Positions 12,580 to 57,280 of a DNA stretch of 64,000 bases are shown here, piece by piece. Each line of letters opens with the position of its first letter. Position 1 is the stretch's first letter. The notes under the pieces were generated by a model. That model worked only from the letters and a program-made list of their open reading frames with translations, did no database searches and had not been told where the DNA came from. The stretch is from Octopus vulgaris (Eukaryota), in assembly GCA_951406725.2 (NCBI GenBank), contig OX597823.1, forward strand, positions 39,742,001 to 39,806,000, read 5' to 3'. A program made the position numbers and the translations under genes.

Positions 12580-13122
12580 GTCCATTTTTTAATTTTTGTC
12601 CTAATGTATTTGACGCGTTCCATATCTCTTATCATTATACTTGGATACTGTGAATTTTGCCTTTGTTTCTTTAGGTTATGTGATTGCCTTTTGCTTAAGA
12701 TAAGTGTTTGATTAGTTATTGTTTTAAAATTTTTCACTTTGTTTCATGATTGGCAAATTTGTTTTGGTGACGTTAAAAATGTTTTGGTGATGCGGATTGT
12801 GTGTTACTAGAAATAGTATTGTGTTCCGTTGATGAGTTCATCTTCCTCATGTTGCCCTAAGCTGTTTTATATGCTCGTTGTATGCTATTTTCTATCTGTA
12901 GGAGAGGCTAATTTTGCTTGAGCAGAAATCCTTTGAGTTCTATATGTGGTATGTTCCTGGTATTTGGGTCATCTACTATAGTACAAATTTTCCTGGCTAG
13001 ACAGTATGGGATGTTGCGTTTTGTGTGTGTTGGGTAGCAATATTTGAAATTTAGGTTCTGGTGTGCATCTGTGCGTTTGTAATGAATATCATTTGTGATT
13101 GTGGTGTTTGTTTTTAATTACC
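12580..13122 (-). pseudogene. Penelope-like retroelement RT thumb/linker fragment (decayed)
   Basis: Manual minus-strand translation gives DIHYKRTDAHQNLNFKYCYPTHTKRNIPYCLARKICTIV, matching the PLE consensus DIYYKPTDSHQYL.F.S.HP.HTKRNIPY.LARRIC, followed by the KRQSHNLKK linker. Confidence 0.8.
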
Positions 13123-30263: not shown

Positions 30264-33200
30264 TGATTTCTTTTATTTGCCACCAGGGCGAATGATGAGG
30301 GTAACAATACAAAGACAGACATAAAATGTGGGGGTTTACATATAATGGAATGACAAAAGAAAAATGAAGAAGTACACACAGTATACGGCAATAATAAAAA
30401 GCAATTGTGTTGGGTGGGGTCATCCTAATACAGGAAGATTTCTGGGGATGATCAAGAAACCCCACAATCCAAGATCACCCTGAATACTATGGAAAATATT
30501 TTTTCCAACTCCTTTCCTCCGACTCACAGGTCTATACTGAGAGTGGCATCACCCACTCTTGCCATTTTCGCACCTTCCACCCATTTTTTCATAAATTCAC
30601 TCGAGGACAGTACCTTCCTCTCCACCCACACTTTCCTTTTCAAATGAAACTTGAAAAAGTCGATGAAGGCTTTACCAAAGAGGTATGTCTCTGTCCTCAT
30701 TCCTTTCAGCCTCGTCCACCAGACAACCTTTTTGACCACAGCAACGAGGCAAAGAAAAACTGCCTTGCCTGCTCGATTAAAGGGAGGGAGGCGGGGCAAT
30801 CATCACTATGGACTCGGATGACGGACGTATCCGTCCCACATGGAACAGCAGCTGTTCGACATAACTCCACAAGTCAGTAATTACCGGACACTGAATGAGT
30901 GCATACCGAACGGTTTCGTCGTTCTACGCGCACCTCGGACCAGGGTTGCCACTCATCAAATAATAAAACACCCAGATTATTTACTGCAAAAAACCCAGAT
31001 CCTATTTTATAAACCCAGATGTTAGAAAACAGGTATTTAAATGGTAATTTAATGATAAAATATGTTGTATGACAAAATGAATACAGAATTTAATATTTAC
31101 TTTATATCACATGGCAGCTAATTGTCAATTTCGTACATATCCACATCATCTTCATTCACTCCTTCAATGGTGATAAACTCATTTTCTTCCTTTTTGAAGT
31201 TCAATCTACTCGCATATCTACGATGACAAGGCCCATCCACTACATCTTTAATAAGTTTAGCGTTCGGCTCCCAAGAAATGCATAACGCTCCCTTTCTTGT
31301 TTAGCGATAAGATGATCGGTGATCATTTCGGCCTTCAACCTATTAGTGAACTTTGTCTTTGTGCAATTTACTTGGGAAAATATGCGCTCCACGCACGCTG
31401 ATGAATGAGGTAACACCGTCAAATTAGTCATGAATTGTGACAGCCTCTCAAATTTAGAGTGGTCAAGCCCTGTCTTTAAGATTACGTATGGAATACTAGA
31501 ACTCAGGGATGCTTTTTGAGGAAACAGGAATATCTTTATTATATTGCTGAAATAATCTCCACTCATCGTCTAGTTCATCAAGTGTGTTTTCTGGTGCAAT
31601 TGCTAGAAATTTTAATGCCAAGGGAATTATCGACTGAGGAGAGTTAGTGAGCTCGCGCGCTATTTTTGGATCAAGTATTTCTAAGAGAGCAAACACTCCA
31701 GCTTCATCGAGTGGAAAGCGCATTTTTATTTGAAAGCATAATTCTATTAAAAAGATTTTGCAATCAGTTTTGAATCTCGCTGAGTCACCAACGATGGGGT
31801 TTTGTTCTTGATATCTCATTGCGCATCTACTGAGGTAAATATCACTCATATCTTTGTGATTTGTTGTGTTATTAAGATCAATATCTGATAATTTAGATAC
31901 AGCTAAAACATTCTCTTTTATAAAGCAACAAAGGATATTTTATATTCACTAGATACAAGTATATGCAACAGATGCAGCCGAAAGTGTTCTGATTCAAACT
32001 CGACATTAAGAGCATTCACTTTTTTAAATATGTAATGTAAGAAGAGCAGCATGTACTTTGTCCTTTTGTTAATCATTATTTCATAGATCCTTTTTGCTCT
32101 GTCCACTTTTCTACTTTAGCCTCTGACTGAAAATAAAGTACAAGGACATCCCACTGCTCTATTATAACGTTAATTACATTTTCACACGACAACCATCTAG
32201 CTTGCAAAAGCTTTGGAATCTTTTCTTTCTTTTTTTTTTGTGCCAACAACACTTGGTATCATATTGAAGTCATTGACGTTTACTACTTCATCAAAAGTAA
32301 AAAGTTAAGTCCTTTAAAAAGGACTCGAGATACGAAGGTAACACTTTCACTGCATGATTTGAACAAAGTGCAAACGAATGGCAAACATAAGATATTGTAA
32401 ATACAGTCGGAATATCGTTTCTCAATAACTTTTGAAACCTGCTCTTATTACCCATCATTGTTGAACAATTATCGCTGGCAAATCCAAGTATGTTGCTCAT
32501 AGATACATCTTCTTTTGGAAGCAAGACTTGACAACGTTGTACAAATCCTGAGACGAACAATTTTCTATTACAATTGCATCCAGAAGAGCATCCTTGACAT
32601 TAAGCAATTGTTCATAAAAAAAGTGAAAAACTATTGCTAAGATTTGTGTCACTGAGATGTTTGTACTCTCATCTATCAATAATGAAAACTTTTGCTTCTT
32701 GAGAACTTTCAAGAATTCCCCTTGTTCATAATGTGCAATATATGTTAATTTTGTGGTTTTCATTTCTTGATTTTAACCTATTTAACTATCGGGAAAAGCC
32801 TTTTTACAAATTTCAGCCTAAATGATTTATATGCATGAAAGGTACGTGATGTTCAGCAACATAACCTGTTAGTAACAAGTCTGCCTTAGCTACTTTTTCA
32901 CTTAATATATCATCTGCTTTTTTTTAACAATAAATGATTCTAATTTAATTGCAGATTTCGCACAATCAAAAGCTTTCTTGTGTTTTACAGTGTTTTTATG
33001 AGCTAACAGTATTGATTTGTTAGCATTTTTCAACACAACGTTACAACAAACACAGTAGCAGGTGTCAGGAATTTTATCATTTTGCCGAACCAGTCTTTAA
33101 GCTCAGCATCCTCCAACCACGACTTCTTAAAACTTTGGGTATACCACTTCCTCTTTTTGGACACACTATTGTCTGCAATTACTTCGCAAAGGGTTACAAA

Positions 33201-40894: not shown

Positions 40895-41478
40895 ATGTGA
40901 CAGCAAAGAAAAGCATACATTCACTCTCTGCATGCAATTAGACTCGGAAAGTTCGTGAGGAACCCATTGACCCAATTTGCTGACTTTTCCGATAGCACAC
41001 AGGTCTCAATGAATGGTTGAATGACCAAATCCAAGCTTCTCTGCTAGTTCCTCAACAGTTACGATGAGATTTTGTTCCACCAGGGTTTTCAGGATGTCCT
41101 TGTCGAGTTCTACAGATCTTTCAGGATGAGGCTCGTCTTCTAGGCTGTAGTTTATGGCTCGGAATTTCTGGAACCACCATTGACACTGCCTTACGCTTAT
41201 TGTCCAATCCCCATATACTGCATTAATATTTCTTGTACTTTCCGTTGCGTTGTTGTCTTTATTGAACTCATAAAGCAAAATATGCCAAATATGCTCCTTT
41301 GTTACTTCCAACATAGCTTTGAAAAAAATAGCTGTTAAAATCGAAATGCACTCTTCAAAACTTGCACTATGAATAAGGACAAGATAAAATTACTACCTGC
41401 TTTTATAGCAAGTTAATATAAGTAGTTTATCCCATTCCCCTCTGACTTTTAGTTCAAGCTGTTGAAAAAACCGCATTA
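40895..41478 (-). mobile_element. mariner (Mos1-type) transposase 5' half, decayed
   Basis: ORF 41006-41314 encodes an HTH region (HIWHILLYEF...QWWFQKFR...LEDEPHPER), followed by KLGQWVPHELSE. Confidence 0.88.
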
Positions 41479-45867: not shown

Positions 45868-48512
45868 TAGTTAGTTAGTTAGTTAATTTGGCTCAAAAGC
45901 AAATAGCAAGGCCATGTAGGGGGACATGGAGTTAAGTACAGGGTGGTGTTCATGTAAAGAGTTCAGGCCACTTGAGGTCCAGGGAGGCTTTGGACAAAGC
46001 GGTCGTCGGCATCTTCACCATCTCGTCTGGCAGCTTGTTCCACGGATCCGCAACCCGGACGGAGAAAGCTCCTCTCCTTCGGTTGAGATGAAATCGTCGC
46101 AGGTAGAGCTTTTCGGAATGACCCCGCAGCCGACGCTCCGGAGCAGGAGTGAAGAACAGCTCTTTCGAGAGGTTACACTTCCCGCTTATGATGTTGTGGG
46201 CGAGAATGAGATCACCACGGCGGCGGCGTTTTTCAAGAGAATAAAGGTCGAGCGTCCTCAGCCTTTCTTCGTAGGACAAATTTTTGAGACCATGAACCAT
46301 GCGGGTAGCCAGCCTCTGGACTCTTTCGAGATGCTGTATGTCTTTGAGGAGATAAGGAGAAGAGGCTTGAATCCCATACTCCAATATGGGTCTCACCAGC
46401 GTGACATAGAGTGGCAGGAATATGGCTGCTGTGAGCATTCCGAATGACCGTTGAATCAAAAACAGAATACCGCGCGCTTTGTTGGCAGCATGGACGCACT
46501 GGGCCGAAGGCGAAAAGGAGGAATCCACCAAGATACCCAGGTCCTTTACCTGATCGGTCCTCTCCAGCAGCAGACGGCCCGGCTCGAAATCAAGTTGAGT
46601 TGCAGGAGTAGAGCCGACAGGCAGATGACAGCACTTTGACACGTTCAGACACAGGTCCCAATCGTTAGACCACTTCCAAATTTGGTGGAGGCATCGACGA
46701 AGATCCTCTATACTACCGCGAGGAGCGACCAGTTTGATATCGTCGGCAAATAGAAGGGTGTGTTGCGTGAGGTCGTCGGGCAAGTCATTTATGAAGACTA
46801 AGAACAACAAGGGCCCAAGCACTGAACCTTGAGGCACGCCACTGCTCGCACTGGAGACGTCGGACCGCGAACCATTAACTTGAACTTGGAAGGAGCGATC
46901 TGAGAGGAAGGCACCAACCCATCGTACAATATCCGGATGGAAACTATATGCTTGAAGCTTGACAAGTAGTAGGCGGTGCTTTACCGAGTCAAAAGCTTTG
47001 GCAAAGTCCAATAAAACGATGTCAACAGCATCACTATCATCGAGGATGCGCGTCACCAATTCTTCCATTACTATTAAGTTGGTCAAGCATGATCTCTTCG
47101 GCACGAAGCCGTGTTGGGAATCAGTGATTGAGGCTGTGTTTAGGAGGTGGAGCATCATACTTTTCTTAAGGATGGTTTCGAACATCTTGCTGATTATTGA
47201 TGTAAGGGAAACCGGTCGGTAGTTAAGCGGGTCTTCGCGGCTCCCTTTCTTGAAAATTGGACAGATTATCGCTGTTCTCCAGTCTGCAGGTATAACACCC
47301 ATCGCCAATGACATATTGAATAGTCGTGTTAAGGGCTCGCAGATGACCGGAGCCAACGCTTTGATAACCCGTGGGTGTATGCCGTCAGGGCCGTGACCCT
47401 TGTTGACATCGAGGCCTTGAATAACACGTTTGACTTGGTCCCGCGTGATGATCAATCGAAGCATTGGAGGTACCGATCTATCAAATGGAGGGGTTTCACG
47501 ACCATCATCTTGTTTGAAAATAGTTGAAAAAGCCTCGGCAAATAATTGACTCTGTTGATAAGGGTCCTCAATCGATATGCCTGTTGAGTCTACCAACGTT
47601 GCAATCTGGTTGTTCAAGCGGGAATTCCGCTGGACATGGGCAAAGAAGGTTTTTGGATTGCTACTGGCATTTGCCGGGATTTTGTATTCATAACTGAAGC
47701 GTTCTTTCTTTTCAATTTTCACGGCTCGGTCTCGTTGAGTTTTGTACACCTCAAAAGCTGCAGTCGAATCCAGATTTTTGAATTCAGCCCAAGCAATATC
47801 TCTGAGTCGACGTTCTCGTTTAACCTTCTTCGTCACCCAGGGCTTGTGTTTTCTTCCTCTTGGGAAGCCCAACGGGAACTGCCTGGTCAGTCAAACAGAT
47901 TACATATGCTTTGAGGAATGACCATAGTTCCTCAACTGAGGACAACGTCATCAGGGATCGCCAGTCCAGAAGCGCGGAAGCCTCGGTTAGAATTTCAAGA
48001 TTAATTGCAGAGAAGACTCTACGTGGCAGCGAAGTAATCGTGGGCGTGGAAAAAGTTGTGTGCATGACGAACTTCAGGACCGCATGATCACTCTTACCAG
48101 ATCTAGCATAGATGGCTGCTGCCCAGACCGATGCCTTGTCGGATATTCAACATGTTGCGATAGAAAACAATCTTCAGCCACGTCAAGAAGGGCCTGGCCG
48201 AACCGGGAAGATGTTGTACAAATTGATGCGGGCCAATCGATCGTGGGAGCGTTGAAGTCGCCTAGTACCAAGCAGTCATGCGAAGCTGAAACGAATCTTA
48301 TCGCTTCGAGTAGATGAGCATCGTCCTGGGGGTCGGCTAGAGGCGGCCTGTAGACAGCCAACACGGGCAGGCAAAACTCAGATAGGCTCGGCTTGCAATA
48401 GACGGCATCGAATTTGGTTGTAGGTTGAGCATTTGTGGGTAGAATACCGCAGGACGGTTTGTGCTCAGACTTAACATACACAGCAACACCTCCACCTCGC
48501 CTTTTTCCTCTC
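45866..48512 (-). mobile_element. CR1-clade LINE, 5'-truncated, (TAAC)n tail
   Basis: APE motifs GGGVAVYVK, YRPP, VLGDFNAP, PTR, LDL and GKSDH (with frameshifts), followed by the RT ORF; tail (GTTA)x5 at 45866-45885. Confidence 0.95.
45950..47872 (-). CDS. CR1-like LINE reverse transcriptase and C-terminal domain (640-aa open segment of ORF2)
   Basis: GPDGIHP, YRPVSLTS, QHGF, DFAKAFDSV, GVPQGSVLGPLLF, FADD, DLGI, RRRGDLI, RGHSEKL, WNKLP. Confidence 0.9.
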   Translation of the reverse strand: MGFPRGRKHKPWVTKKVKRERRLRDIAWAEFKNLDSTAAFEVYKTQRDRAVKIEKKERFSYEYKIPANASSNPKTFFAHVQRNSRLNNQIATLVDSTGISIEDPYQQSQLFAEAFSTIFKQDDGRETPPFDRSVPPMLRLIITRDQVKRVIQGLDVNKGHGPDGIHPRVIKALAPVICEPLTRLFNMSLAMGVIPADWRTAIICPIFKKGSREDPLNYRPVSLTSIISKMFETILKKSMMLHLLNTASITDSQHGFVPKRSCLTNLIVMEELVTRILDDSDAVDIVLLDFAKAFDSVKHRLLLVKLQAYSFHPDIVRWVGAFLSDRSFQVQVNGSRSDVSSASSGVPQGSVLGPLLFLVFINDLPDDLTQHTLLFADDIKLVAPRGSIEDLRRCLHQIWKWSNDWDLCLNVSKCCHLPVGSTPATQLDFEPGRLLLERTDQVKDLGILVDSSFSPSAQCVHAANKARGILFLIQRSFGMLTAAIFLPLYVTLVRPILEYGIQASSPYLLKDIQHLERVQRLATRMVHGLKNLSYEERLRTLDLYSLEKRRRRGDLILAHNIISGKCNLSKELFFTPAPERRLRGHSEKLYLRRFHLNRRRGAFSVRVADPWNKLPDEMVKMPTTALSKASLDLKWPELFT

Positions 48513-48574
48513 TCTCTATATATATATATACATGCATATATGTGTGTGTGTGTGTATACATACACATATCTGAC

Positions 48575-48663
<89 letters not shown>

Positions 48664-49547
48664 GATAGATAGATAGATAGATGTGTCTATTGATATGCAT
48701 ATAAACACACACACAATATATATAATGATCTATCAATTAATCTAACTGTCTGTATGTCTGTCTGTCTCACTATTTATCTGTCTCTCTCTCTGACTATCTC
48801 TCTCTCTCTCTCGATCTATCTATTTATCTATCTGTACTCATACCCATAAACATTGGTATAGTCAAGGCATGAACCAATGTATTGTTACTAATAGTCTCAT
48901 AACACGATTAGAATTCCCATGAATCTTCGGACATTATAAGACTAACGACTATGAAAAATTGAATATATAAATATCAAAATGAACCTTGTTCAGCATCCAA
49001 TGTCTTACTATGTAGTTTTATCCCATCCACACGACAGGATGTTTTCTTTTCTTTTTTTTTTACGTCTGTAAAACTTTTACTAATGCAGATATAAGTTCAA
49101 TATCCATAGTTTTTACATATAACTTTGTGAAATATGAATATTTCAATGTGCAAAATACAAAATATAAAATACAAATTACACTATTCAAAGTTGAGACTAT
49201 TGCAGCCAAAAATTGCACCTCATTTTCTAGATGATGTTTACTGTATATTTATCAAAGATGTGTCACTTGGTTTTGTGTTCAAATTGACTGTGCAATAAGA
49301 ATGTGTACCTGGGGATTACGGGATCGTGACTTTTGTGCATTCCCATACAATTGTCAGTGCCAATCTAGGTCCTACGAAGAATCCGTCGACGTTTTAGGGT
49401 ATACAATGTTTCGTAAATCAAAGGAGGAGTAAAATTTTAATTCTTGTTTGCATTGAAATATGAGCCTGGGATTTGGATTGTTAGCAAAAGGCTGAAATTC
49501 TTACTGCAGCAGCCCTGGATTTCAGATGCAGTGGTAGGAGAATTTTT

Positions 49548-49636: not shown

Positions 49637-51120
49637 GAGATTCAAGCCTATGCCGTCCAACAGCGTCTCCATCGTGGGACACTGGACCAATGGACCGGTT
49701 AAATTGCTCGGGTCTGGTTCGGTCTGGACCTCCAAATAGAAAAGAACTGGGACGATATAACGAGTAGGGTAGTCACTCTGACCCAGCAATGGGCCGAGAG
49801 GAAGCTTCCCTAAAAGGTTGGGCGGATGTGGCGAATGCATACATCGCGTTCGCTATCTATTACCGTCTAACCATCGTGCCTTGTCCCGTCCTTACCATCA
49901 CCAAAATTGAACGCATACTCTTCCACTTTTTGTGGAAGGGAAGCGTTCCGATGGCTAGCCAATCTATTTGCTGCCAAAACCCGTTAAATGGAGGGCTGGG
50001 CATGCCATGGTTGGTGGTACGCAGACATGCGCTAAGACTGCGACATTTCCAGCGCTTCATAGACGACAGTGAACAGGTGTGGTCGCCGTTTGTGAGTCGC
50101 GCTTTCCAGCAATTTGTCTCTTTGGCTGAACTACAGTCATGGATCGAAGCTGGGCGAATGGTACAGCGTATAATCGCTATGCTCTAGAGCAACTCTGCTG
50201 TCCGGGACCAAACTTGTGCAACTCTACTTCCACAAAAGTGTTCTATAGAGGATTGGTGGAGGGGAGATGCGACGATGTTCTCGGGGAGAATCTGGGCGTC
50301 AATGAGGAACACCTGAGCCGCCTCTTCAGACTTTCGGGCCGGGACCTGTGGACAATCACCAGTGTCCCTGGCCTGGCAGTGCTATCGGGAAGCATTGCCC
50401 GTTCGAGATAAGCTCCACAGATACGGCTCAAGAAACGCCGAACCGACCTGCCAGAGATGCCGTCAGAGCGACGAAACCGTTCTGCATGCGCTCGTGCAGT
50501 GTCCAACCATTTCAGACCTGTGGGCTTATGTCGAACAGCTGCTGGCACGTGTGGGACGAATTCGGTTATCGGCCGAGTCTATCATGAATGTTACCCCATC
50601 ACCTTCCTTTAACTGGTGGCTATGATGAAAGAAAGTGTATGGTGGAGGCGTTTGAAAGATTTAGGAGTTTGAAAGATTTAGAGACAAACGCTTTCCTCTC
50701 TGGCCAATCGCTCATCAACTTTTTCAAGTACCACTTGAAAAGGAAGGTGAGAATAGAGAGGGAAGCTTTGTCTCATGAAAATTTCAATAAAAGGTGGGTA
50801 GCAAAGATGGTACGTGTGAATGACGAAACCACTTTGAGCATGATTCTGTAAATCCAAAAGTGAGAGAGAGGGCGCTTTGCTCTCATGTGTTCTTTCCCCG
50901 CCTGAGGTTACCGTGGCCTTTTTCGTAGGCTTTTCTTTTCACGAATAAACCTAATCTGTATTACTTTTTACCCTCACTCTGGGGAACGCTATTATAGATG
51001 GAACATTGTTATTTTGCTGTTTACACGTCCCAAACGCTTTCGATCCCTTTTGATCATATTTCGTTTTCTGAAAATAAATGTTCTACATTGTATTGCCCCT
51101 CTGCATGACAGAGAAATCTA
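49637..51120 (+). mobile_element. L1/Tx1-like LINE 3' half, decayed
   Basis: SLKGWADVANAYIA...FHFLWKG...GGLGMP; LAWQCYREALPVRDKL...CQRC...ETVLHALVQCP (zf-RVT); FFKYHLKRKVRIER. Confidence 0.9.
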
Positions 51121-51854
51121 TAGTACTATGTATAACAAAATTAAATTTTATTGTATGGTAGAGAAAATTCCTACTGGATGTAGAAACCATATTCTAGACA
51201 TAGACTAATCATTAGCAAAGGAATATCCCAGCTTTACAACATTGGAATAAATCCTGCAAATAAACCTATTTCAAATTATATGCCATCACAATCCATTTTT
51301 CTTTCTTTCTTTTTTTTTTTTTGTACATAACATTTCATTTATGGCAACTTAGTAAATAACACATTAAATATTCGTAAAATTTGAAATAAAAATCTTTCTT
51401 ACTTTTAATTTTCTGAGAATTTTCTATTCAACAACAGACAGTCAGACAGACATCTGAAATACTTTACCATCTGCTTAATCCCAAAGAACTGATAAAAGAA
51501 TTTATTCGTTCTAAAGAGATTCATTTCACTCTTTATCAGTTCCTCCAAGAAAAACGGCCAGCTTCTTTACCTCTTACAATGCTATTAACCTGAGGAAGTT
51601 GATAAAGCATAAAGCTCATATGTTTCTGCCATACTTTTTATTTGTAATTCTACAGGTACTTGGTAAAGATACATGACAATACGGGCTGTCAGCACATTTA
51701 CATATTTAACAAAATGAACCAAGAAATTAGGATCAATTACTGTTTTCAACGACATAAGAGGCACATATTTCTTTTCATTTTTTTTTTCGCAATGAAATGC
51801 CTCAAAAATCACCCCAGATCCTATATGTGAAGTAGGGCTTCCCATAAGCTAGTA

Positions 51855-52297
51855 TTGGTTTTAAATTTTGGTACAAGGCCAGCAAATTCATGGGAAGGAG
51901 TAAGTAGATTAGACATGAGTGCCCATAATTTACTTGTTTTATCAATCTCAGAAGGGATGAATGGCAAAGTCGACACTGGTGACATTTGAACATAGAATGT
52001 AAAATCAAAAGAAAGAAGCATTTTGTCCGGTGTGGTAACAATTCTGCCAGTTCTCCGCCTTACCCTATAAGATAATATTACAGGCTTTAATAAGGAGGTC
52101 AGTTAGCAGAATCATTAGCATGCTTGGAAAATGCAAAGCAGCATTCCATCTGGCTTCACATTCTCAGTTCAAATTCCACTGAGGTTGACTTTGCTTTCAT
52201 CCTTTGGGGTCAATCAAATAAGTACTACTTGAGAACTGGTTCAATGTAATTGGCTTCTTCCACACTTGCTGACCTTGTGCCAAAATTTAAAACCAAT
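51855..52297. mobile_element. Head-to-head pair of SINE A2 copies (51855-52060 minus, 52095-52297 plus)
   Basis: The outer ends attggttttaaattttggtacaaggccagca and tgctgaccttgtgccaaaatttaaaaccaat are near reverse complements. Confidence 0.8.
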
Positions 52298-52845
52298 ATC
52301 ACAAGCTTTAATGAACTAAAACCTTTTATTTTTTTTTCCATACACTGCTGAAACTAGTGGGATGTCTAATATGCCCATTTGTCTTTTATGCCACTAAATA
52401 TGGTTAATTTGTACCTATGGTGTGGAGATATACTTGTTAATATAACAATCTTCTCCTTGATCATGTCTTTCCTACAGACGCCAACCTGCAACAGTTTAAA
52501 CTAAACATTTATGGAATCATTTTCATGGTTCTTGAATAAGTCATTAGTAGTATTCTCATTGAACAAGATCCGAGACAGAGATGAGCTAAATGATGAGTGT
52601 ATTATGTAGACCCAGGTCAGCTCTGTACAGGCTGATCGATTATCGAATTCATAGGTAATATGATGCACGCACACAACATATTATATGAGAAAGTTGGTTT
52701 GGGAAAGCACGTGGTTGAATATACAGAAAATAGTAAAAAGTGAAAAAACTACAGAAGGCTTGTTTTAAAAGGTTAAAAAAATTATATTTGAGTCAATATG
52801 TCTGAAGAATGTTATCAATTTTTTTCTTACAATGACATAGTTTAC

Positions 52846-52885
52846 AAGAAATGACCGGTTTCGCATTCAGCTTTTCAAATTTCTT
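52846..52885 (-). ncRNA. Minimal type I hammerhead ribozyme motif, U3-A8 core
   Basis: AAGAAAU-UUGAAAA-GC-ugaau-GC-GAAA-CCGG-UC-AUUUCUU on the minus strand. Confidence 0.75.
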
Positions 52886-53990
52886 ACATCGTTATGTTTA
52901 TGTTGAGAAGAGTTATCGTTATGTTTATGTTGAAAAGAGTTCCAAATAAGGGGAGGTAATGAGTGATTTCTTCCGGTGTAAGGGAGATAATCGCTTAAAA
53001 ATTTTGTCTTTCCTTTGGAGTGAATTTCTCTGTATAAGTATGTTGGAATGGTTAAGTCTGGGCTTGTACTTTTCAATGAAGAATGTTTCCTTGTTTAGTC
53101 TAATTTGTGTTGGTGTTCCGATAGCACATTGGTAAAATGGAAAGATTAAAAATTGTGGTAGTAGTTGCTTTGCGCATTTCTCAATGTGCTCACTAAAGGG
53201 TATCATTCTGTATTCTGGGAATGCAATCTGTTGTCGATGCAGTGTGCATCTACGTCTGAGTGATAGTCCCGTGGATCCCACGTAGTCTTGGTGGCAGCCC
53301 GAGCATTTTATGACATAAATTATGTTTTCAGAGGCACAAGTAAAATTAGATTTGATCTTGAATTTTTTTAATTAGTATATCCAAGAATGGGAGCTCCTTT
53401 TGGTTGTATTCCATTGTGAACTGTATATTTGGGTTTATGCTGTTCAATAGGTTTTTAAATTTTAGGAGTTTATCTGTGTTTTCATTCCAGAGTATAAAAC
53501 AATCGTCCAGGAATCATTTCCAATTCTCTTTTAAGTATTAAGAGAGGGGGTTTCCAAAGATTGATAAAGATTCCTGGTAAATGATTATTTCCAGGTAGCC
53601 CATTGTTAGGTTCGCAATGACTGGTGCTGCCCTTGTACCCATAGCAATTCCGGATTTTTGGCGGTAAAATGTATTGCGAAAATCACCAAATCATTAAAAG
53701 CTACAAACAACTACTACCACACTTTTTAATCTTTCCATTTTACCAATGTGCTATCGGAACACCAACACAAATTAGACTAAACAAGGAAACATTCTTCATT
53801 GAAAAGTACAAGCCCAGACTTAACCATTCCAACATACTTATACAGAGAAATTCACTCCAAAAGAAAGACAAAAATTTTTAAGCGATTATCTCCCTTACAC
53901 CGGAAGAAATCACTCATTACCTCCCCTTATTTGGAACTCTTCTCAACGTAAACATAACGATAACTCTTCTCAACATAAACATAACGATGT

Positions 53991-54030
53991 AAGAAATTTG
54001 AAAAGCTGAACGCGAAACCGGTCATTTCTT
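53991..54030 (+). ncRNA. Minimal type I hammerhead ribozyme motif, U3-A8 core
   Basis: AAGAAAU-UUGAAAA-GC-ugaac-GC-GAAA-CCGG-UC-AUUUCUU: perfect 7-bp stem I, palindromic ACCGGU stem III, GUC triplet. Confidence 0.78.
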
Positions 54031-54154
54031 GTAAATTATGTCATTGTAAGAAAAAAATTATATTCTTCAGACATATTGACTCAAATATAAATTTTTTAAC
54101 CTTTTAAAACAAGCCTTCTGTAGTTTTTTACTTTTTACTATTTTCTCTCTCTCA

Positions 54155-54233
<79 letters not shown>

Positions 54234-54476
54234 ATATATATATCAGACCTTCAGCTGATTAAATCATTCAACCTATGCCACCATGAAAATGGGCGTTAAA
54301 TGATGATGATGATCTATATGCTGGCAGGCATGATTGTGTGATCAAGAAGTTAGCATTGGAACCACATAGCAAAGGGTTCAGTCCTGCCCAACTATACCCA
54401 CTATTTGACCAATACCATGTGCATGGAATAGGTAGACAAAACGTGGAATAAACCTGTCATATCTGTATGTGAATGT

Positions 54477-56141
54477 TGTCATAATCCAATGTCAGACTGT
54501 TATAACATCCACTCTGGTATAGAAGTATAGTTAGTTAGACACTCCGGTATAGTACTATAGTTAGTTAGATACGACTTTCTATGACCAACTACCCCGACTT
54601 CTCGACATCACAGTATTTGTAACGACTACACATACCACTCGTCACCATAGGCTGGGTGTTCTATTATTATTATTAACCCCATGACATCTCCCCTTTTAAA
54701 TTTTCTTGTTTTTTTAGGGAAGGTTATTTTATTTCTTTTTATTTGCAATAATTTTTACATAACCTCACCTCCCTTTTTTTAGTTTTTTTTTCTCATACAA
54801 TTACAAATTTAATATTTTTCTCGTTTGGCATCCACTTCCAGGAACTCCTTACATTTTCTTTTTCTTTCACTTGTGCATCTGGGTTCAATAATTTGTAGTG
54901 GCATTGGTATTTGAAAAGTATCATATTCCATTGTTTCTTCCATTCTCTTGGGTTCGCTCTCAACGAATCCTTTTTTAGTTGATTTATATGTCTCTTATAT
55001 ACTCCTTTTACCAAGTATAGCATTTCCTATGTGTTTGGTAATCATGCCATCTTCCCAACTTTGTTTTCCTTATTTATATATCCTAACAAATTCATTTTCT
55101 CCAATTTTGAAATATCTTGCTGTATCCATTGCAATTTTTCTTTCCTTATCTGGTAGTAATTTGTCAAAGCCTGATTTTATTTTCCTTGCAAACATCAGGT
55201 CTGCTGATGACAAACCTGCTGATGTATTTGGATTTGGTGTCACACAGTATACTCTTAAGAACTGGTGTAGAGCTACCTCATCTGTGTCTTCCTTATTCAA
55301 CTTTCTTAGGGCTTTCTTGAACTTATCAACAAATGTTCTGCTTGACCATTAGACCTGCGATAGTATGGTGTGGTAGTTACCTGTTCTACGGCGAATGTTT
55401 TACAAAACTTTTTAAACTCAAAAGACACAAATTATGTTCCATTATCAGACTCTATAGTGCCTGGGATGCCGAATCTCGCCAAGCAGCTCATGTAGAAAGT
55501 TTGTCATAGTTGAGGATGTTGACATTTTACACTTACAAATTAGGTTCGACATTTCTAGCATGGATTGAACAATGAGCTTTTCTCGCTAAAAGATGCACAC
55601 AATATGTCTTGTATTTTTAAAGTTTATGCCAGAAGGTTTTTTCGGGAGTACGTAATTGCTGTAACACTCATGTTTTCCTGCTGCCGCTTTTCTCAGGATT
55701 AGACGCGTTTTGATATTGTCGTCCCAATCTTTGCACTTTTTATTGAAGATCTGTTCGTATCTTCTATAGTAGGACTCCTGCGTCTGGTTCATACTTAAAT
55801 TCCATTATTGAGTTTGCAACATAATCTGGAGAGAACATCTTTTCAGCATTTTTGGACGACTTGCTATTCATTAATTGCAGCATTTGTTCTTATAATAGTA
55901 ATTGTTATTGTTCTTGCAGTGGTAACTGTTGTTGTCATAATAATTGCTGTTGTCATAACAATTGTTGTTGTTGTTCTTGCAGCTGTTATTGCTACTGTTG
56001 TTGCTGCTGCTGTTGTTATTGCTGCCATCACTGTTACTGCTGTTGCTGTTGCTGTGATAGTTGTTTTTGCTCTCGTGATTGTTACAGGCTTTGCTGCTAT
56101 TGTTGTTGTTGTTATTGTTGTTATTGTTAGTTGTTTGTTGT

Positions 56142-56184
<43 letters not shown>

Positions 56185-56200
56185 CATTTTTCTATTTCCA
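54477..56200 (-). mobile_element. Gypsy-type LTR retrotransposon remnant (polyQ-rich gag, integrase, PPT, 3' LTR)
   Basis: LTR 54477-54686 with TGTCAT...ATGACA termini, preceded by PPT AAAAGGGGAGA. Integrase SDNGT...PYYRRSNGQAE...LHQFLRVYCVTPNP...SSADLMFARKI. gag YRRYEQIF...WDDNIKTRLILRK...YSNYVLPKKP. Most of pol is deleted. Confidence 0.85.
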
Positions 56201-56866
56201 TCTCAGCTTTGTTAAAAGTGCTTTCTATCCTTTCTGCATTTCCTCTCTGATTACAAATAAAGCTTTTTCGGAAATCATTGAAGATAACCAAATATCACCA
56301 AACTGGATTATGACTTGCACGGTTCAGTGATCAGAAATAATATTATCTCAGCTCACTATCACCATTGCTAACATTAAATATTATTATCACAGTTTGTTAT
56401 TGGAGTAGCTAACATTTAATATTTATTAATCAGTTTTATTTGACACAACAAAATCTTTTTCTCTGTAAATGTTTTATTTGCAAAAGCAGTTTCACTTTAC
56501 TTTAATTTGCCTCCACTCCACTCTCCTCACTCCCAACACCCACCCAAAACCACTGCCACCACCACCACCATGCCACCACCGTGCCACCACCGCTACCACC
56601 AGCTTCCCCATCACCGTTAACACCACAAACTATCACTACCACATCCATCATTACTAAAACACCCCACAACCACCACCACTATCTCCATCTTGAAAAATGT
56701 TTATTATGAGAATTTTAATAATTATCATAGAATCATTGAAAAATCTAAACAGTGTATCAAAACAAATTCTACATCTGCAACTACCGGTAATAGAGTTGTA
56801 AACACGTTTATACATATATATATATATATATATATACATACATACATACATATATATATACACATG

Positions 56867-56920
<54 letters not shown>

Positions 56921-57280
56921 TATATATATATGTACATTCTTTTATTCCTTTTCTTGTTTTATCCACCCGACTGCAGCCATGCTGGAGCACCATCTTATAA
57001 ATCCACACACACACGTATACATGTAAATATGTGTGTGTGTATCTGTATACGTTTGTATGTATGTATTTATGTATATGCATATACACTTACACAAACATGC
57101 ATATATATATATATATCCGAAATCTGCGATGAGGGATCAGTTTCTGACTGAAGAATGAAGGCTTTGAATGACCCGTTTGTCTTTTTGTTCGTCCCTTCGT
57201 GTATTTCACGTTATTTATTTGTGTAAAGGTTTATTATATATTTCGCAGCGTACGTGCATAATAACTTCTTTATGTTTATC

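Follow-up and report, generated by a model that had tools for sequence, protein, structure and literature searches.

A dead, inverted Penelope-like insertion in Octopus vulgaris carrying a minimal U3-A8 hammerhead motif predicted to fold as a dimer

Analysis of a 64,000-nucleotide stretch of the Octopus vulgaris genome (contig OX597823.1; here termed the window, with positions counted from its first letter) revealed a single insertion event at 52685-54146. The inserted sequence is a 5'-truncated and internally deleted member of a Penelope-like family encoding a reverse transcriptase (RT) and a GIY-YIG endonuclease. Its main arm (52725-53365, minus strand) comprises the endonuclease coding part and the 3' pLTR; the coding part matches residues 352-487 of the family protein at 88%, and the DNA is 95-98% identical to other family copies. 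An RT fragment (53361-53676, minus strand; 95% to residues 52-150 of the family protein) is joined to the endonuclease part over an internal deletion of approximately 580 nt, where other copies hold about 580 more bases covering the remainder of the RT, the thumb and the linker zinc finger. The inversion junction (53677-53709, plus strand) contains a 26-nt piece of the linker region in the opposite orientation (53684-53709), which is a 100% match to L102:3696-3721 and likely originated from a template switch. The inverted shorter arm follows (53705-54146, plus strand). It consists of the C-terminal endonuclease part and the 3' pLTR, matches the left arm at 96.6% and terminates with a (CT)n(AT)n microsatellite. 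Comparison of the two arms (52725-53170 and 53705-54146) gave 447 columns with 8 substitutions and 6 gap columns. The initial annotation had placed the start of the element at 52725. This position was corrected to 52685, because the left arm carries an additional 40-nt "tail" of family sequence (52685-52724, minus strand), which matches the full-length copies L062 and L102, in which it separates the short 3' end from the start of the ORF. The tail is absent at the right end, where the arm terminates at 54146.

Each arm contains a 40-nt motif with the layout of a minimal type I hammerhead, a U3-A8 core and a GUC triplet, at 53991-54030 on the plus strand (C17 = 54023) and at 52846-52885 on the minus strand (C17 = 52853). 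Both places, the setting in a Penelope-like pLTR and the type I geometry had been recognized in the initial annotation and were upheld; the claimed position shortly after the GIY-YIG C-terminus was also found, with the KPRLN end at 53825, 165 nt ahead of the motif. On the plus strand, AAGAAAU (53991-53997) is followed by U3-A9 (UUGAAAA, 53998-54004), a GC/GC stem II (54005-54006 and 54012-54013) with a 5-nt loop, G12-A15.1 (54014-54017), CCGG, U16.1 (54022), C17 (54023) and the 3' strand of stem I (54024-54030). The minus-strand motif, read from 52885 to 52846, differs from this copy in loop II only. The two motifs are a duplicate within one insertion and not two independent observations. A 27-nt tandem duplication is located directly upstream of the motif in both arms (52888-52941 and 53935-53988); it is a family trait that differs among subfamilies. 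Inspection of the core identified Y3-U4-G5-A6-N7-R8-A9, G12-A13-A14, A15.1-U16.1, H17 and a Watson-Crick 3-8 pair, which was U3-A8 in 52 to 53 of the 56 family copies compared (see below). An extra base between A9 and position 10.1, common but not defining in the consensus given in PMC4209133, is absent, and A9 abuts G10.1 in the family of the window copy (family A).

Searching the genome with a 3' marker of family A yielded 3,496 exact matches, corresponding to approximately 3,500 family 3' ends, and a 33-nt motif pattern had 1,023 exact matches versus 0 for the reversed control. In family copies, a single frame of 491 to 850 aa encodes the RT, a CX4CxxC linker and GIY-YIG. The RVT_1 profile scored above its cut-off in family A and in two related families, B and C; GIY-YIG was above the cut-off in family C and below it in the window piece (E 0.0015; 19.2 bits versus a cut-off of 22.6). 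An RT followed by a C-terminal GIY-YIG domain in one ORF, partial-tandem pLTRs or an inverted 5'-truncated copy, and a 30- to 40-bp tail on one end are all present, as in EN+ Penelope-like elements. The family copies further contain the linker finger of the CX2-5CxxC type and two cysteines inside GIY-YIG (CGRPNCATC and IYVIKCSGCHQDYVG); in the window copy, the linker belongs to the deleted part. These characters resemble those described for the EN+ elements Neptune and Nematis (Craig et al., bioRxiv 10.1101/2021.04.23.441226), which have a C-terminal GIY-YIG with CCHH cysteines and the same linker, and which likewise show partial tandems, inverted 5'-truncated copies, 30- to 40-bp tails and microsatellite targets. 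With the linker as the distinguishing character, the octopus element would be of the Neptune type. Homologues bearing a species name include molluscs, with an argonaut as the best. In the full-length copies L062, L102, L107, L108 and L111, pairs of motifs occur on the same strand 3,977 to 3,996 nt apart, and the upstream motif is located about 200 nt before the ATG (195 nt in L062).

To assess conservation, copies were picked by a marker 90 to 110 nt downstream of the motif, so that the core itself was not used for selection; 56 of 97 such copies span the region. The initial annotation had stated that a core and a stem I no more conserved than the flanking pLTR would speak against a ribozyme. 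In the 56 copies, the majority base is retained in 97% of cases at 11 core positions, versus 84% at 146 flank positions, and among all windows of 40 nt the one beginning at 53991 is the best conserved. At position 17, C is present in 26 copies, A in 18, U in 9, a gap in 3 and G in none, and 1 of 72 copies of families B to E has G there, where all such counts come from related copies and are not independent trials. Position 7 is free and position 17 avoids G, as in hammerheads.

Stem I, moreover, covaries across families. When the two strands were paired within the same family or with a partner swapped from another family, the number of pairs out of 6 was 6.0 versus 1.3 in family A, 5.5 versus 2.6 in B, 3.6 versus 2.0 in C and 4.5 versus 2.3 in D (67 of 127 A copies, namely those with A1.1, 15 B, 31 C and 22 D copies; 11 unassigned matches were left out). 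Compensatory pairs were observed at 2.1-1.1 (U-A/G-C), 2.2-1.2 (A-U/U-A), 2.3-1.3 (A-U/C-G) and 2.7-1.7 (A-U/G-C), and stem II has G10.1-C11.1 in families A, C and E. A cross-family MAFFT alignment was discarded, as it misplaced the core. These sequence comparisons show selection acting on the motif, and the refuting condition named in the initial annotation does not hold.

Families B and C were obtained by a protein search with a distant homologue, and their proteins are 57-59% identical to that of family A. Their 3' UTRs are unalignable, yet UUGANAA...AACCGGU is found at the same place before the ATG. This finding bears on the view that a chance hammerhead-like string is hitch-hiking in a high-copy element. 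The sequence is AT-rich, an Rfam scan of 50000-57000 at E<=10 detected no hammerhead, monomer folding gave z values below 1 and the counted copies are related, all of which would be expected of such a string. It would not, however, recur at one place in families with unrelated UTRs, show compensatory changes in stems I and II, or form the best conserved window. The cross-family covariation refutes it in practice, and we regard a chance origin as extremely improbable. The Rfam result also bears out the assertion of the initial annotation that standard searches overlook the motif.

Family B (L122-L133, L145, L146) is very young, with dozens of near-identical endonuclease frames; its 3' UTR of about 1.5 kb is largely microsatellite, and its motif has U-U at 10.1-11.1 and a stem I of UUACUU/AAGUAA. 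Family C (L140-L144, L177-L206) has about 2,300 motif matches, with A13C and a weak stem I, and many of its copies are very short inverted pairs in which the sequence changes just upstream of the core. One locus (L144:885-2006, minus strand) holds another type of GIY-YIG element, which lacks the linker finger and is joined to an inverted family C copy. In family D (L147-L176, L270, L271), stem II has 4 bp and stem I is closed by a G-C pair; just 1 of 22 copies has remains of an endonuclease upstream. Family D and the older relatives E were found by patterns that left stem I and positions 7 and 17 free and contained ACCGGU, so core identity in these two families is partly circular. Throughout the genome, the U3-A8/ACCGGU form accounts for 2,076, about 2,300 and about 5,200 matches over control. 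Since Rfam misses this very common form, hammerheads are undercounted by annotation in the octopus genome.

Folding predictions were made for the motif as a monomer and as a dimer. The initial annotation had described ACCGGU as a self-complementary stem III. As a palindrome that allows dimerization this was confirmed; within one molecule the stem cannot form, the monomer hammerhead fold having an energy of +3.5 kcal/mol, and monomer folding was no better than that of shuffled sequences (z 0.2-0.9). The proposed dimer through ACCGGU was reproduced in silico: the predicted minimum-energy fold of the homodimer is a double hammerhead (-13.3 kcal/mol), in which ACCGGU pairs between the molecules and the stem I strands are swapped, and for the window type this fold is kept with 25-nt flanks. 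The energy gain on dimerization is ordinary, with 115 of 300 shuffles as low; in these models it is the shape, and not the energy gain, that counts. With 25-nt flanks the prediction is lost for a young subfamily of family A, and the double hammerhead is not the best predicted dimer fold for U3-G8/GUC, family B or family C. Across the 18 predicted dimer folds, intermolecular pairing of the invariant ACCGGU was seen in 16.

The initial annotation had envisaged an efficient variant ribozyme acting at this locus, with one on each strand. The subfamily of the window has the cleanest geometry among those folded, U3-A8 hammerheads have been reported to be active in vitro (PMC3088659), and a pLTR promoter or a start between the arms could yield a single motif unaccompanied by its antisense. 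RNA transcribed across both arms, in contrast, is predicted to form a 447-bp hairpin in which 39 to 40 of the 40 motif bases are paired with the opposite arm, and a second motif copy on the same strand was found neither at the locus nor elsewhere in the 64-kb window. The 2-bp stem II, the missing monomer fold, the deletion in this copy and the age of its subfamily, the oldest of family A, also speak against efficient local cleavage, which we consider very unlikely. Given the hairpin in read-through RNA and the missing same-strand partner, the motif would likely act in tandem transcripts made from full-length copies.

We therefore favor, with a probability of roughly three in four, a model in which this copy is a dead insertion, inverted and truncated at its 5' end, and its motif is the conserved minimal hammerhead of an abundant family, of the published U3-A8 type; it is predicted to fold only as a dimer via ACCGGU and would likely cleave slowly at best, in full-length tandem transcripts and not here. 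Two motifs, located either in both pLTRs of a single tandem RNA or in two separate RNAs, would pair through A15.1-CCGG-U16.1 and swap their stem I strands, and the resulting double hammerhead is predicted to cut after position 17. The protein of the element would have begun to copy the RNA at two points downstream of the cut site, at distances of about 120 and 165 nt, and thereby produced the long tailed arm and the short inverted arm, while read-through RNA from the present locus would form the long hairpin and leave the motif inert. With respect to activity, deep mutational scanning of a single type III hammerhead identified the G3-C8 swap as the only change to rescue the 3-8 region (PMC9901934), so a U3-A8 pair can be poorly active.

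The 5' ends of family copies were examined at 99 of the first 100 marker places. In 77 of these 99 copies, the sequence extends upstream through the cut site; hence, most templates were probably uncut or re-joined at the 3' motif. No pile-up of 5' junctions was detected at the cut site, with 5 of 99 within 5 nt versus about 3 expected from 32 junctions in the neighboring 110 nt, end positions being noisy near A-tracts. These data are also what would be expected if the motif no longer needed to cut and were retained as a scaffold for dimerization or protein binding, through ACCGGU pairing and its stems, while the catalytic core decays. Such a role would account for the invariance and predicted intermolecular pairing of ACCGGU and for the failure of core geometry in successful lineages (no A1.1, U3-G8, A13C in family C and U-U at 10.1-11.1 in family B), and it would agree with a report that hammerhead mutants left insertion in vitro unaffected (PMC11167929). 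On the other hand, ACCGGU was part of the D and E queries, the avoidance of G at position 17 together with the freedom of position 7 is the pattern of catalysis, and a young abundant branch has a perfect junction again. A scaffold with a decaying core is an unlikely explanation, and a slow, dimer-dependent hammerhead is preferred.

The history of the motif was traced within family A, which contains 2,076 motifs. In about half of these (1,057; the two patterns differ slightly) A1.1 closes stem I, and 178 U3-G8 motifs were found. A search for C3 relatives with the same stem II gave 13 matches; 5 of these are family copies with C3-A8, each a single one, and the flanks of the other 8 are unrelated. 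For the phylogeny, 48 copies were used with the motif excised, and the tree was rooted on two older copies; rows with fewer than 1,150 aligned bases and one short older copy were left out. The subfamily of the window branches at the base and, at a mean pairwise distance of 2.9%, is the oldest in family A. The next branches are without A1.1, and U3-G8 subfamilies (1.4-1.9%) arise from them. A young GUA subfamily (1.4%), nested among the A1.1-less lineages, carries A1.1 again. The distribution of A1.1 requires two changes, and a single split was rejected (p-AU 4e-5, for a group defined after the first tree). These results indicate that A1.1 was likely regained in the young branch, which may have occurred by mutation or by local recombination. 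The copies of this GUA subfamily (L110-L119, L138) have a perfect 7-bp stem I, and many keep frames of about 811 aa.

The pair U3-G8 had been considered as an intermediate from C3-G8. This was ruled out by the trees, in which U3-G8 derives from U3-A8. A transition from C3-G8 to U3-A8 was not visible among the families examined: every one already has U3-A8, and the joint change of C3 to U and G8 to A proposed in the initial annotation was not found as an event. Lineages with cores predicted to be weak, namely those without A1.1, with U3-G8 or, in family C, with A13C, were still amplified. A tentative and rather doubtful extension would be that the clade offers a dated series of natural alleles of a single ribozyme, in which transposition went on despite loss of the stem I closing pair, then despite the change to U3-G8 and, within a sister family, despite A13C, and in which a young abundant branch rebuilt the perfect junction. 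If so, selection would be strong on dimerization by ACCGGU and weak or intermittent on cleavage.

The U3-A8 variant is not new, having already been published for Penelope-like elements. Cervera and De la Pena (2014, PMC4209133) described U3-A8 hammerheads in the pLTRs of Schistosoma Cercyon elements, with about 1,300 hits of a dedicated descriptor, and reported low activity of such hammerheads, by dimers only. The octopus motif resembles those of the S. mansoni Cercyon elements in being of type I, in the pLTR, U3-A8 and, here by prediction, dimer dependent; S. mansoni(4) has UUGAAAA, as in the octopus, and S. mansoni(3) has UUGAUAA. Opposite-strand pairs occur there 100 to 700 bp apart, and the legend of Fig. 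S4A mentions a copy truncated at its 5' end whose second motif lies on the other strand. Unlike Cercyon, the octopus motif has a stem II of just 2 bp, no extra base after A9 and a stem I of 7 bp, and it resides in a cephalopod host and in an element with a Neptune/Nematis linker. The CCGG between A15.1 and U16.1 is nearer to the "small palindromic helix III" class of the same paper. Natural covariation to U3-A8 was also reported by Perreault et al. (2011, PMC3088659) for hammerheads that, unlike the present motif, are monomeric, stabilized by tertiary contacts and mostly microbial. In that study, insertions beside C3 (variants 2a/2b) impaired cleavage, and their geometry corresponds to that of the A1.1-less subfamilies.

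The Poseidon element of Anolis carolinensis (PAc; Frangieh et al. 2024, PMC11167929) likewise has a pLTR hammerhead, a tail on one end and copies that run through the cut site, as well as internal RT starts downstream of the hammerhead such as those postulated here. In PAc, uncut RNA was the main template and two start sites explained the tail, with which the mostly uncut or re-joined templates suggested for the octopus would fit. Cleavage of PAc required protein, and RNA ends at the site were not detected. Unlike the octopus motif about 200 nt upstream of the ATG, the PAc hammerhead has a canonical C3-G8 core and overlaps the start codon. A search of the literature on octopus or cephalopod Penelope hammerheads and U3-A8 found no description of the octopus family, which is likewise not mentioned in the available text of PMC6765202, PMC6962438 and a 2026 retrozyme preprint; other papers on hammerhead variants may list such variants. 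With the octopus motif, the published variant gains a further host lineage. What hammerheads do in Penelope-like elements continues to be described as an open question (PMC11167929; Craig et al.). Natural subfamily variants with known amplification success make this question testable, and the wider value of the octopus data lies in the subfamily series.

Related copies were also detected in contig data of five organism sets; among the differences listed, those within the motif affected loop II or consisted in the loss of 54024. Among 122 frames of at least 75 aa in the window, domain searches gave no host gene, only transposon domains and two weak sub-cut-off DUF hits, and an intron is possible. 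The other transposon sequences of the window include a second, more distant Penelope-like RT/thumb fragment (12730-13117, minus strand; 45-48% to families A to C), LINE remains with a 646-aa RT frame and an endonuclease part split by a microsatellite (45953-48736, minus strand), a second LINE tail with zf-RVT (49768-50848, plus strand), and remains of hAT (31243-32772, minus strand) and Mariner (Mos1 HTH; 41009-41389, minus strand) transposases.
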